This document shows, in pieces, positions 7,932 through 13,033 of a DNA stretch of 64,000 nt. Every line of letters begins with the position of its first letter. Position 1 is the stretch's first letter. The position numbers were made by a program, and so were the translations under genes. The stretch covers positions 1 through 64,000 of IMG/VR virus record IMGVR_UViG_3300010965_000001. One strand, written 5' to 3'. The DNA comes from a virus. Its lineage: Duplodnaviria > Caudoviricetes. The notes under the pieces were generated by a model, which made no database searches, was not told the origin of the DNA, and was given only the letters and a program-made list of their open reading frames with translations.

Positions 7932-8061
7932 TGGCTCGTAAGGGACTCAAACCCTTGTCTCTCAAATTCACCTTCACAAGTCGCGTACTTGCAAATGTCC
8001 GACAAGTCGCGCAACCCGCCAATAAAGAATATGAGTATCCTTCCCGTTAGACCAACAAGCC
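7932..8061 (-). tRNA. tRNA-like RNA with about 57-nt structured insertion at the anticodon loop; identity undetermined
   Basis: Acceptor GGCTTGT/ACGAGCC+A; D arm GTCT..GGAT; T arm AAGGG-TTTGAGT-CCCTT; long anticodon arm. Confidence 0.65.
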
Positions 8062-10458: not shown

Positions 10459-12693
10459 TTAGATTGAACCACCGCCGTCATTCGTTTTCACTTCGGCTTC
10501 AAGGAACTTTTTATTCATCGTCCTTGCGATTTGCTCAACCGAATCAGTGTTGATATTGAAGGCGTTCTTAACACCGTACATTGCCGACAACGAACGAAGG
10601 GATGCTTTTCCATAATCCGAAATAAGGTATGAAATAACTGTTGCACCATTCCGAATCATCTTGTCAACCATTCGCTTACAGTGACGGTATGCAGGTTCGT
10701 CACCGTAGTAGAATGATTCCTTTGTTATCGTTCCATGTCCGTACCGTCCGCGCCGCCCGCCGGCAACGCCGTTGTTCGCTTGGTAACACGGTTCACCGTC
10801 CGAAAGATTGACGAAGAAGAACTGTTCGTCACGTTGCATCGAAGGGAAAATGCCGTGCATCATTGCTTCAAAACACAATGACTCAGGTGTTGTGCCGTCT
10901 GCAATCAATCGGTGAAAGTACTTACGAATATGCGACAACTGATTGACGCGGGAATCGTAAGCCACGTACACCAACGGATTCGATACCGTTGTGGTTCTGA
11001 ATGAAATGACACATTCAATGTTCTGCGTCATGTGTGAGGCGACTGCCAATGCGATACAAGTCTTAATCGCGTTCTTGAATCGTGTACCACTCATTGAACC
11101 CGACGCGTCAACTGAAATGTGGATGTGTGCCTTGTTGAACCTGTTGGTTTCAATCTTGGAAAACACGTTCGTAACATCGTAACCAAGTGATGCCACTAAA
11201 CGCTTATCCATCTTGCCTGCATCCTGTCGTGTGAACTTCAACGACTTCTCCTCATTACGAATCTGTAACCGTCCGCCAAGCAGTTTACCCAACACAAAAC
11301 CCTGCTGAACGGAATCTTTCAGATTCTCCCCGCCCCAGTTCCTGTCTGAAGGGACGAATGCTGTGTTGAAGGTACGGTTATCCATCGTCGCGTCAGTCAA
11401 CTTCTTAATAACCAACACCTGCACGGTATTACCCATAAATTCTTCACCACCAGCCAATTCAACAGTAACACCGCTGGACTGTAATGAAGTAAGACGTTTA
11501 CCTTCTGCGGCGGAGATACTCTTCTTCTTAATGTCACCGCCTACAAAGTCCTTCTGCTCCTGCATCTTCTTCAGTAACTTCTTCAGTGCGGCTTTTCCCA
11601 TTCCAAACATCGCTTTACATTCCTTGTCTGAAAGGGAATCAATATTGATTGACATGCCATCGTCATTACCGTTTTCATCTTTACATGCATCACCCAAACC
11701 AAATTCCAACAACTTCTGCGTCTTGTAATCCAACGCCGTAATGTTATCCATGATAACGGATAAGACTTTTGCGGCGACTTCCGTAACTTCCGTTGTGTTG
11801 GTGAGGCGGTCAATCTTGCCGACATTAATCAACGAACGGATTTCACGCATCCCTTTCAAGATGTCAGGATTGCTCGACTCATTAAGGCTGTTGATAATCT
11901 GATACGAATACGAATCCATCGTTTCGGTGTTGAACGTCTCGCCCTCTTTCAACTGCTTTGTAACTTCCTCAGAGAAGAAGTACCGATTGTACAGTGATTC
12001 GTAGTAGCCACGATAGCCGGGAGCCGTGTTATAGACGTAACTGTCGATGCGTCTGTCCTCAATCCAATTCTCAAGTTCCTTCAACTGAAGGACTAAGAAA
12101 AGGTCTGCACGAACCTGTGCGGCCGTCAAACCTGTGCCGAAACCCACTGTAGTCTTACCGAATACAGCCTTCCAATCCCAAAACTCAATTTTCGGATTCA
12201 AGGCGACAACACGGTCAATCATCTTCATCGTGATGTACTTCCGGCGTTCGGAAGAATTTTCAAACAACCGTTGAAATAAGGAGAAGTCCGTTTTAACGAT
12301 ATGCGATGCCTCATGTAAGGCGAGCCCTACCGTAGAATCGAAGTTACCTTCCACGTTCGATGACAGTGTAACCGTCTTACCGTCCGTATACGATTCATCC
12401 TTTTCAGAGTAACGGACAACGATGTCATCACGTTCAGTAAGGATGCGGACGAAGTTACCGCAACTTCTCATAAAGGCTCCCAACTTGATGAGCTCAAGAG
12501 TCTTCTCAGCCTTATCCACGTTCTTGCCATGAACCTTGTCAACAACGGCGACATCACCGTCTTCATCCTCATCAAAGGAGTCAAGGAATCCACCGCTGTA
12601 ACGCGACACCGCGTAGTCATCATCATCGAACCAAAACGATGAATACCGATTATTTGCGTTCGCCTTTTGTGTGGCGGTTAATTTTTTAGCCAT
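10459..12693 (-). CDS. VWA-domain protein with N-terminal HExxH metallopeptidase-like domain (CobT-like partner of AAA+)
   Basis: LHEASH, EDRRID, MIDAS DASGS, GTTPE, NLSDGEP. Confidence 0.8.
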   Translation of the reverse strand: MAKKLTATQKANANNRYSSFWFDDDDYAVSRYSGGFLDSFDEDEDGDVAVVDKVHGKNVDKAEKTLELIKLGAFMRSCGNFVRILTERDDIVVRYSEKDESYTDGKTVTLSSNVEGNFDSTVGLALHEASHIVKTDFSLFQRLFENSSERRKYITMKMIDRVVALNPKIEFWDWKAVFGKTTVGFGTGLTAAQVRADLFLVLQLKELENWIEDRRIDSYVYNTAPGYRGYYESLYNRYFFSEEVTKQLKEGETFNTETMDSYSYQIINSLNESSNPDILKGMREIRSLINVGKIDRLTNTTEVTEVAAKVLSVIMDNITALDYKTQKLLEFGLGDACKDENGNDDGMSINIDSLSDKECKAMFGMGKAALKKLLKKMQEQKDFVGGDIKKKSISAAEGKRLTSLQSSGVTVELAGGEEFMGNTVQVLVIKKLTDATMDNRTFNTAFVPSDRNWGGENLKDSVQQGFVLGKLLGGRLQIRNEEKSLKFTRQDAGKMDKRLVASLGYDVTNVFSKIETNRFNKAHIHISVDASGSMSGTRFKNAIKTCIALAVASHMTQNIECVISFRTTTVSNPLVYVAYDSRVNQLSHIRKYFHRLIADGTTPESLCFEAMMHGIFPSMQRDEQFFFVNLSDGEPCYQANNGVAGGRRGRYGHGTITKESFYYGDEPAYRHCKRMVDKMIRNGATVISYLISDYGKASLRSLSAMYGVKNAFNINTDSVEQIARTMNKKFLEAEVKTNDGGGSI

Positions 12694-12746: not shown

Positions 12747-12805
12747 AAGATACGGACTTTTCAACCAAAAGTCAACTGTTTCAATGTTACCAAATTGTTA
12801 CCAAA
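12747..12805 (-). promoter_or_regulatory. promoter with full TGTTAC box
   Basis: TTGACT-17-TATCTT; box 12785-12805. Confidence 0.85.
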
Positions 12806-12810
12806 ACTTG

Positions 12811-12954
12811 TAGTCGGTGTAGGATTCGAACCTACGTAAAGGACGGCTCCTTTATCGGTAGATTGTAGGTAATTACTCCTTCAACCATCCCGCCGTGATA
12901 TGCTTTTGAGCGCTCGCCACATATCCAAATGTATTTCCAAGTTCACAACCGACT
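12811..12954 (-). tRNA. type-II-like tRNA-like RNA with about 55-65-nt insertion at the anticodon; identity undetermined
   Basis: Acceptor AGTCGGT/ACCGACT+A; T arm GTAGG-TTCGAAT-CCTAC; variable arm TAAAGGA-GCCG-TCCTTTA; own promoter. Confidence 0.7.
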
Positions 12955-12972
12955 GCCATCATCAACGTATTA

Positions 12973-13033
12973 AAGATACACAGAAAAGAGAGAAAAGTCA
13001 ATGGAAGTAGTGTTACCAAATTGTTACCAAATT
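12973..13033 (-). promoter_or_regulatory. promoter with full TGTTAC box driving the tRNA-like gene
   Basis: TTGACT-17-TATCTT; box 13011-13033. Confidence 0.85.

Follow-up and report, generated by a model that had tools for sequence, protein, structure and literature searches.

A tRNA-shaped RNA gene under its own boxed promoter in a 210-kb phage genome, a candidate non-decoding RNA of the T4 RNA C kind

The 144-nt element described here, which runs from 12954 to 12811 on the minus strand (RNA base p corresponds to window coordinate 12955 - p), is supported as a genuine gene of tRNA-like form, served by a promoter of its own. On balance it appears to encode a tRNA-shaped RNA incapable of decoding, a tRNA mimic of the kind represented by T4 RNA C. 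The phage record comprises 210,562 bp and is 100% complete by the CheckV estimate; the window, meaning the whole 64,000-nt stretch that was analysed, is its first 64 kb.

The tRNA frame and the fold of the element

The element has the acceptor stem, T arm and discriminator of a tRNA, with a 7-bp AGUCGGU/ACCGACU stem in which seven of seven pairs are Watson-Crick (12948-12954 with 12812-12818) and a T loop of the UUCRANY type. The perfect 7-bp acceptor, canonical T loop, long variable arm and discriminator A described in an earlier note on this DNA are all confirmed by the sequence and the fold. The variable arm is an AAAGGA-GCCG-UCCUUU hairpin (p102-117) with the extra pair U101-A118, giving 6-7 bp in total, and the T arm (GGTTCGAATCC) has a single exact occurrence in the window. 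For a chance test, the frame was defined as a 7-bp acceptor of Watson-Crick pairs only that adjoins a T arm of 5 bp with a TTCRANY loop, and was compared with 200 Markov shuffles, outside the tRNA cluster. Across genome bases 1-165000 and on both strands this combination occurred once, as the element itself, where 0.005 occurrences were expected, a value to which neither the CAA trailer nor the lack of an encoded CCA contributes.

The acceptor is separated by U8-G9 from a D-like arm, a feature missing from the earlier note's list. This arm has three of four pairs, GG in its loop and a C replacing A14, and it is absent from the thermodynamic fold, with a pair probability of 0.02 or less. The minimum-energy fold of the full RNA is a five-helix junction (-43.1 kcal/mol, z -2.3 versus shuffles). 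Both internal hairpins that had been proposed are present with pair probabilities of at least 0.9, although the core of the second one, UUGAAGG/CCUACAA (p71-77/86-92), makes six of seven pairs and contains one A.A mismatch. This core is lengthened by G69-C94, G70.U93 and C63-G65/C97-G99, and the whole is a 37-nt imperfect hairpin. Extra sequence does exist in the anticodon region, but its size, previously put at roughly 60 nt, is either 52 nt (the only intron model) or approximately 73 nt (p27-99, as two hairpins), depending on how it is counted. Because every frame stem is intact and the insert itself is well folded, the element looks designed rather than decayed, in agreement with the earlier view that a strategy and not decay is at work.

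No variants were found within the element in four DNA runs, and no ORF of at least 50 aa lies over it. An overlapping 29-codon ORF (12884-12970, minus strand) was rejected, as it has no ribosome-binding site and does not resemble the neighbouring small-protein family. An inner tRNA proposed by Rfam (12811-12890) was also rejected, having neither a D nor an anticodon arm. A search for antisense targets in the phage genome returned only chance-level 11-13-mers.

The window contains another tRNA-like gene (7932-8061, minus strand), which folds as a clean cloverleaf with one long rod as its anticodon arm (-46.1 kcal/mol, z -3.3). It has no Rfam tRNA match at E <= 1 and no CAA trailer, and its anticodon would be UCU in a spliced-tRNA reading. 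It is found directly upstream of a boxed promoter (7880), as is the 144-nt element upstream of its next one.

Table 1. Features of the element and its surroundings (window coordinates), with T4 RNA C for comparison (coordinates of NC_000866)
Feature	Coordinates	Strand	Details and basis
tRNA-shaped RNA gene	12811..12954	-	144 nt; sequence, fold, chance test
Acceptor stem, 5' strand AGUCGGU (p1-7)	12948..12954	-	pair probabilities 0.74-1.0
Acceptor stem, 3' strand ACCGACU (p137-143), and discriminator A (p144)	12811..12818	-	from sequence and fold
D-like arm UGAA-CUUGGAAA-UACA (p10-25)	12930..12945	-	read from sequence
Hairpin 1 (p27-62), core GAUAUG/CAUAUC (p30-35/53-58)	12893..12928	-	pair probabilities 0.95-0.96
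Hairpin 2 (p63-99): CGG/CCG base, GGUUG/CAAUC, AGG/CCU, 8-nt loop AGUAAUUA	12856..12892	-	pair probabilities 0.90-1.0
Variable-arm hairpin UAAAGGA-GCCG-UCCUUUA	12837..12854	-	pair probabilities 0.94-0.99
T arm GUAGG-UUCGAAU-CCUAC (p120-136)	12819..12835	-	sequence, fold
3' trailer CAA	12808..12810	-	same trailer in the phage's tRNA cluster
5' leader	12955..12972	-	about 14 nt from inferred transcription start to RNA base 1
Sigma-70-like promoter TTGACT-17-TATCTT	12973..13001	-	box 9 nt upstream, as in the family
Upstream box GGTAACA-ATTT-GGTAACA	13011..13028	-	exact match, aligned with other boxed promoters
Next boxed promoter (GGTAACAATTTGGTAACA-N9-TTGACT-N17-TATCTT)	12747..12802	-	promoter for the CobT-like gene 10459-12693
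T4 RNA C (species 1 RNA, rnaC)	NC_000866 70908-71046		139 nt, folded here; neighbour RNA D

Promoters, trailer and genomic setting

The element is the sole feature between its own promoter and the next. The earlier note had placed it alone between two TGTTAC-box promoters, and both of these are complete (13028 to 12973 and 12802 to 12747). The promoter of the element reads GGTAACAATTTGGTAACA-N9-TTGACT-N17-TATCTT-TAATAC (13028 to 12967), with the TAATAC also found in two other boxed promoters, and has the full consensus of a promoter family with approximately eleven members, all of them within 2.8-17 kb. Ten copies of the box GGTAACA-ATTT-GGTAACA are found in this interval, compared with 0.11 expected by chance. 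The next box, which begins 9 nt past the 3' end of the RNA, serves a CobT-like/CobS-like gene pair, and no terminator is present between the end of the RNA and that promoter. A box of the form (G/C)TTAACAATTTNNTAACA is kept in phages with a CobT-like protein 46-58% identical (L106:2485-2620; L004:7917; L007:2364) and, because it is conserved in these related phages, it is a real regulatory signal of the lineage. One of the contigs, L106, has three tandem copies of the box, 59 nt apart, upstream of its CobT-like gene.

The tRNA cluster of the phage (174569-188940) has 34 tRNA calls. In 25 of them the trinucleotide CAA directly follows the discriminator, as it does in the element, and in 32 at least the C is present; in this cluster CAA is likely to be a 3'-processing signal. 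The element has no encoded CCA, like all of the cluster tRNAs but one (tRNA-His). The phage also has a tmRNA at 170373-170755, the tag of which ends in ...AEYAYAA (ARAGORN).

A full tRNA set is already present in the genome, and none of the phage's own cluster tRNAs is a close paralogue of the element. Long variable arms are normally restricted in bacteria to the Leu, Ser and Tyr tRNAs. The Asn, Lys and His tRNAs of this phage also carry one (180829-180912, 180926-181008 and 187342-187431; 83-90 nt in total), so that a long variable arm is no guide to identity in its genome. The element had been labelled type II and Leu/Tyr-like, which is unsafe in view of these three tRNAs and of the acceptor, since the exact acceptor together with A73 is that of tRNA-Val(GAC/UAC) in bacterial genomes, including two Acidobacteriota MAGs, many Endozoicomonas, Salinisphaera and Novimethylophilus (L112:7677-7749, L113:1024-1095, L107, L118 and others). 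The tRNA-Val match, that in Acidobacteriota included, may hint at an origin or a host and should be read as a lead, nothing more.

Megablast and blastn searches of 50,697 phage records found no homologue, with only the T arm being matched, and the exact 3' 25-mer of the element had no match in viral contigs. The acceptor and T-loop frame with a long gap was found in neither viral nor metagenome contigs. With a gap of normal length it was absent from viral contigs and recovered five tRNAs or odd tRNA-likes from metagenomes, the contigs of which showed no coding similarity to the phage by tblastx. In bacterial genomes the strict frame pattern gave 0 matches, and a looser pattern matched mostly tRNA-Val. 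Metagenome tRNA-likes that combine the acceptor AGUCGGU/ACCGACU-A with a long variable hairpin and lack a normal anticodon arm were observed at L092:8703-8792, L093:1107-1198, L094:888-972 and L096:3310-3395; comparison of L092 with L093 revealed a 4-bp stem closing a 9-nt loop, with compensatory changes (GUGA/UCAC versus ACGA/UCGU).

Eight contigs with a CobT-like protein 46-58% identical to that of the phage (L004-L009, L104 and L106) retain the gene order and the boxed promoters, and have no tRNA or tRNA-like gene at the locus or anywhere on the contig. At 80 further IMG/VR loci, with identities of at most 36%, only ordinary tRNAs were found nearby. The earlier note had considered that relatives might carry a normal tRNA at this position; those examined carry neither a tRNA nor a tRNA-like gene there. 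As no homologue was found, and as relatives with the same gene order and boxes are without a tRNA-like gene, the promoter-plus-RNA unit looks like a cassette specific to the lineage.

The anticodon region and competing readings

Neither ARAGORN in its default mode nor Rfam at gathering thresholds reports anything at the element, which becomes visible only under intron or relaxed settings. When introns are allowed and the threshold is lowered, ARAGORN calls a tRNA-His(GUG) and places an intron of 52 nt at the canonical position, 37/38, a single base 3' of the anticodon; the form from which the 52 nt have been removed clears the default threshold. The match to RF00005 reaches 19.3 bits (E 0.16, against a threshold of 29) and extends only over 12811-12890, skipping the D and anticodon arms. 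The sole candidate for an anticodon stem, and the only 5/5 stem in the right geometry, is p28-32/92-96, which has 5 bp and closes a U33-GUG-G loop after removal of the 52 nt. The corresponding reading, put forward in the earlier note as an interrupted anticodon, is that of a true intron-bearing tRNA, in which the 52 nt between p38 and p91 would be excised to leave a 92-nt tRNA with the anticodon GUG and a long variable arm. The phage does have one Rnl2-type RNA ligase domain (124918-125568), and Lak megaphages reportedly have short, 'enigmatic' tRNA introns for which no splicing route is known (Devoto et al. 2019, PMC6784885).

Several observations make such a spliced tRNA unlikely. The candidate anticodon stem has a pair probability of 0 in the full-length RNA and forcing it costs 4.6 kcal/mol, its 5' strand being sequestered in hairpin 1 and its 3' strand in hairpin 2; the transcript thus contains no 5-bp stem closing a 7-nt anticodon loop. 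Protein-spliced pre-tRNAs of the archaeal/eukaryal type retain the mature domain in the precursor, whereas here the anticodon stem is unformed, which precludes a bulge-helix-bulge, and none was found at the splice sites (no 3-nt bulges flanking a 4-bp helix). Two nucleotides would lie between the D and anticodon stems. The self-splicing core of a group I intron takes approximately 200 nt or more, for which the insert of 52-73 nt is too short, and no intron or ribozyme family matched it at E up to 10. The ARAGORN intron call is itself non-specific because its score comes from the strong frame: when 300 excisions were made arbitrarily, 84 (28%) equally yielded a tRNA call at the default threshold, and these calls had more than 12 different anticodons. 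The spliced product would be without histidine identity, as it has A73 and no G-1 (there is a C at -1), and a canonical tRNA-His(GUG) with G-1, C73 and an encoded CCA is present at 187342-187431. No splicing endonuclease (EndA, PF01974), RtcB (PF01139) or CCA-adding enzyme was found in the 210-kb genome, the control genomes being matched by these models. Rnl1 was likewise not found there, a weaker blank, since its model matched no control genome either. The search for splicing enzymes suggested in the earlier note thus yielded only the Rnl2-type ligase domain, and a tRNA completed by removal of the insert is left unsupported, given a stem that does not form, models that reject the element or are non-specific, and the missing histidine identity. 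It is more doubtful still that the insert is a real intervening sequence spliced by a route new to bacteria and phages, with both early-region tRNA-like genes giving conditionally matured tRNAs. One such route might have a host or phage anticodon-loop nuclease make the cuts and the Rnl2-type ligase of the phage seal them.

That the element is the relic of a disabled tRNA is a possibility of rather low probability. On this account a tRNA was copied into the early region and received an insertion of approximately 52 nt, its function was lost, and it is perhaps still transcribed. The failure to find a homologue, the absence of the element from the nearest relatives, the weak D arm, the sub-threshold tRNA scores and the full tRNA set of the genome are all compatible with decay, and the authors of the KVP40 record annotated similar genes as tRNA pseudogenes. 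Decay should, however, strike all stems, whereas no damage is seen in the acceptor (7/7), T arm (5/5), T loop, variable hairpin or trailer; moreover, the insert folds cleanly into two hairpins, the element has a full-consensus promoter to itself, and it was not recently copied from a cluster tRNA. The position of the element, whose 3' end and the next promoter box are 9 nt apart and not separated by a terminator, could instead point to a module acting in cis, in which an RNase P or 3'-end cleavage site would separate upstream read-through from the CobT/CobS mRNA and the RNA would be a by-product. A boxed promoter (7880) likewise follows closely on the other tRNA-like gene (7932-8061), which fits this proposal. 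We consider it improbable, as an element that served only for cleavage would have no need of its own promoter approximately 14 nt upstream, a simple tRNA or hairpin would suffice for that purpose and two elaborate hairpins are left unexplained, and the relatives handle the same gene junction without the element.

Analogues among phage RNAs and a possible role

The reading that appears best to accommodate these observations, a tRNA-shaped RNA that does not decode, has a parallel in T4 RNA C. This RNA was reportedly sequenced in the 1970s, and phage tRNA look-alikes that are unable to decode are said to have been known since. To our knowledge, phage RNAs of this type are routinely ignored or annotated as pseudogenes, and we are aware of nobody who knows their role. 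T4 RNA C and RNA D are real stable RNAs of unknown function (PMC3014915) and have been seen on Northern blots as late RNAs (PMC9697503). In the folds of both RNAs, the element shares the architecture of RNA C: the two are similar in size (144 and 139 nt) and each has an acceptor-like stem, a long hairpin at the variable position and a canonical T arm (CCGGG-UUCGAAU-CCCGG in rnaC), with a hairpin region of approximately 60 nt replacing the anticodon arm. There is no sequence similarity beyond the T arm, the alignment of the middle parts giving z 1.65. The two RNAs also differ in structural detail, in that the acceptor of rnaC has two U.U mismatches and is not accompanied by a D arm, whereas that of the element pairs at 7/7 positions and is followed by a D-like arm, and in that the insert of rnaC is one rod and that of the element two hairpins. 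Furthermore, rnaC lies at the end of the T4 tRNA cluster and gives a late RNA, whereas the element is approximately 160 kb from the tRNA cluster and has its own boxed promoter. A blastn search with rnaC matched only close T-even relatives, and Rfam holds no rnaC family.

A weak blastn match of the element led to the KVP40-like vibriophages, in which four tandem long tRNA-like genes of 113-123 nt are found inside the tRNA region (e.g. JN849462 182676-183547). These genes, 113-124 nt long when those of Cronobacter phage S13 are counted with them, are labelled 'tRNA-Pseudo / tRNA-OTHER', and in the KVP40 record tRNA pseudogenes. They have perfect acceptor, D and T arms with 40-54 nt inserted in the anticodon loop and, like the element, they are missed by default tRNA finders. 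Two of them nevertheless score 52-55 bits on RF00005 despite their inserts, compared with 19 for the element, and they stand in tandem within the tRNA region, unlike the element.

Twenty long tRNA-like genes of 113-125 nt were collected from seven T4-like phages of Vibrio and Cronobacter (S13), namely phi-pp2/KVP40 (L091:716-1587) and L098-L103, a count that leaves out a 208-nt call in Cronobacter phage S13. In these genes a conserved insert module is present in 20/20 copies and consists of a covarying stem of 5-6 bp, a UGAYAA loop and then a AUUCAGCA/AUGCUGCA-like motif. The stem variants include GCAAGC/GCUUGU, GAUUC/GAAUC, CUUAC/GUAAG and GAAUAC/GCAUUC, and the module is common to different tRNA bodies; it has no Rfam family. 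The residual anticodon loop drifts among the KVP40-type genes (AUGUUAA, ACGUUGA, AUGUUAU, GUAGAAA), and it is the insert, not the anticodon, that is conserved in them. The element is without the module, having neither its stem and UGAYAA loop nor the AUUCAGCA-like motif. Alignment of the middle part of the element with rnaC, the KVP40 genes and the other tRNA-like gene of the window gave z values of at most 1.7, and a 9-mer (AGCAUAUCA) common to the element and some KVP40 inserts was treated as chance. Judged by sequence, the element is an analogue of rnaC and the long KVP40 genes and not a demonstrable homologue.

Two further systems resemble the element in part. The tRNA genes of Lak megaphages are also too long and recognised only with eukaryote-type intron settings, but copies with and without the insert define their excision points, whereas no insert-free copy of the element is available; in addition, the precursor of the element does not keep the mature anticodon arm. 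YrlA (Y RNA-like, RF02553) is a non-coding RNA with a tRNA-like module, as is the element, but this module is internal and the ends of the RNA form a Ro-binding stem. RF02553 did not match the element at E up to 10.

As a tRNA mimic of the RNA C kind, the element would be transcribed from its own boxed sigma-70-like promoter, within a block of small genes with promoters of the same type. The transcript would be a substrate for tRNA end-processing enzymes by virtue of its intact acceptor/T-arm minihelix, with RNase P predicted to cut at base 1 and the 3' end presumably trimmed at the N73-CAA trailer, as in the real tRNAs of the phage. The CCA would have to be added by the host, because the phage encodes neither the CCA nor a CCA-adding enzyme. 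The mature RNA would retain the tRNA elbow, with its T loop, D-loop GG and long variable hairpin, and should not pair with codons on the ribosome, because two stable hairpins replace the anticodon arm. Its most likely mode of action would be that of a mimic or decoy that ties up a protein recognising the upper half of tRNA. Candidate partners, purely by inference, are a host tRNA-directed nuclease, a modification enzyme or a charging enzyme.

Phage tRNAs are known to counter tRNA-directed immunity (PMC10264068, PMC11555353), nucleases that cut tRNA tails exist (PMC12851939), and immune nucleases directed at tRNAs have turned out to be common (PMC10264068, PMC11555353, PMC12851939). Because such nucleases are common, a decoy role would be directly testable in T4 and KVP40 phage-host pairs with analogous RNAs. 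Intron-aware tRNA finders easily turn RNAs of this type into tRNAs with introns. The element indicates that a non-decoding tRNA-like RNA can be a separate gene outside the tRNA cluster, under an early-region operator-like box, and its location in a set of genes with boxed promoters points to host takeover or counter-defence as its role, and not to translation.
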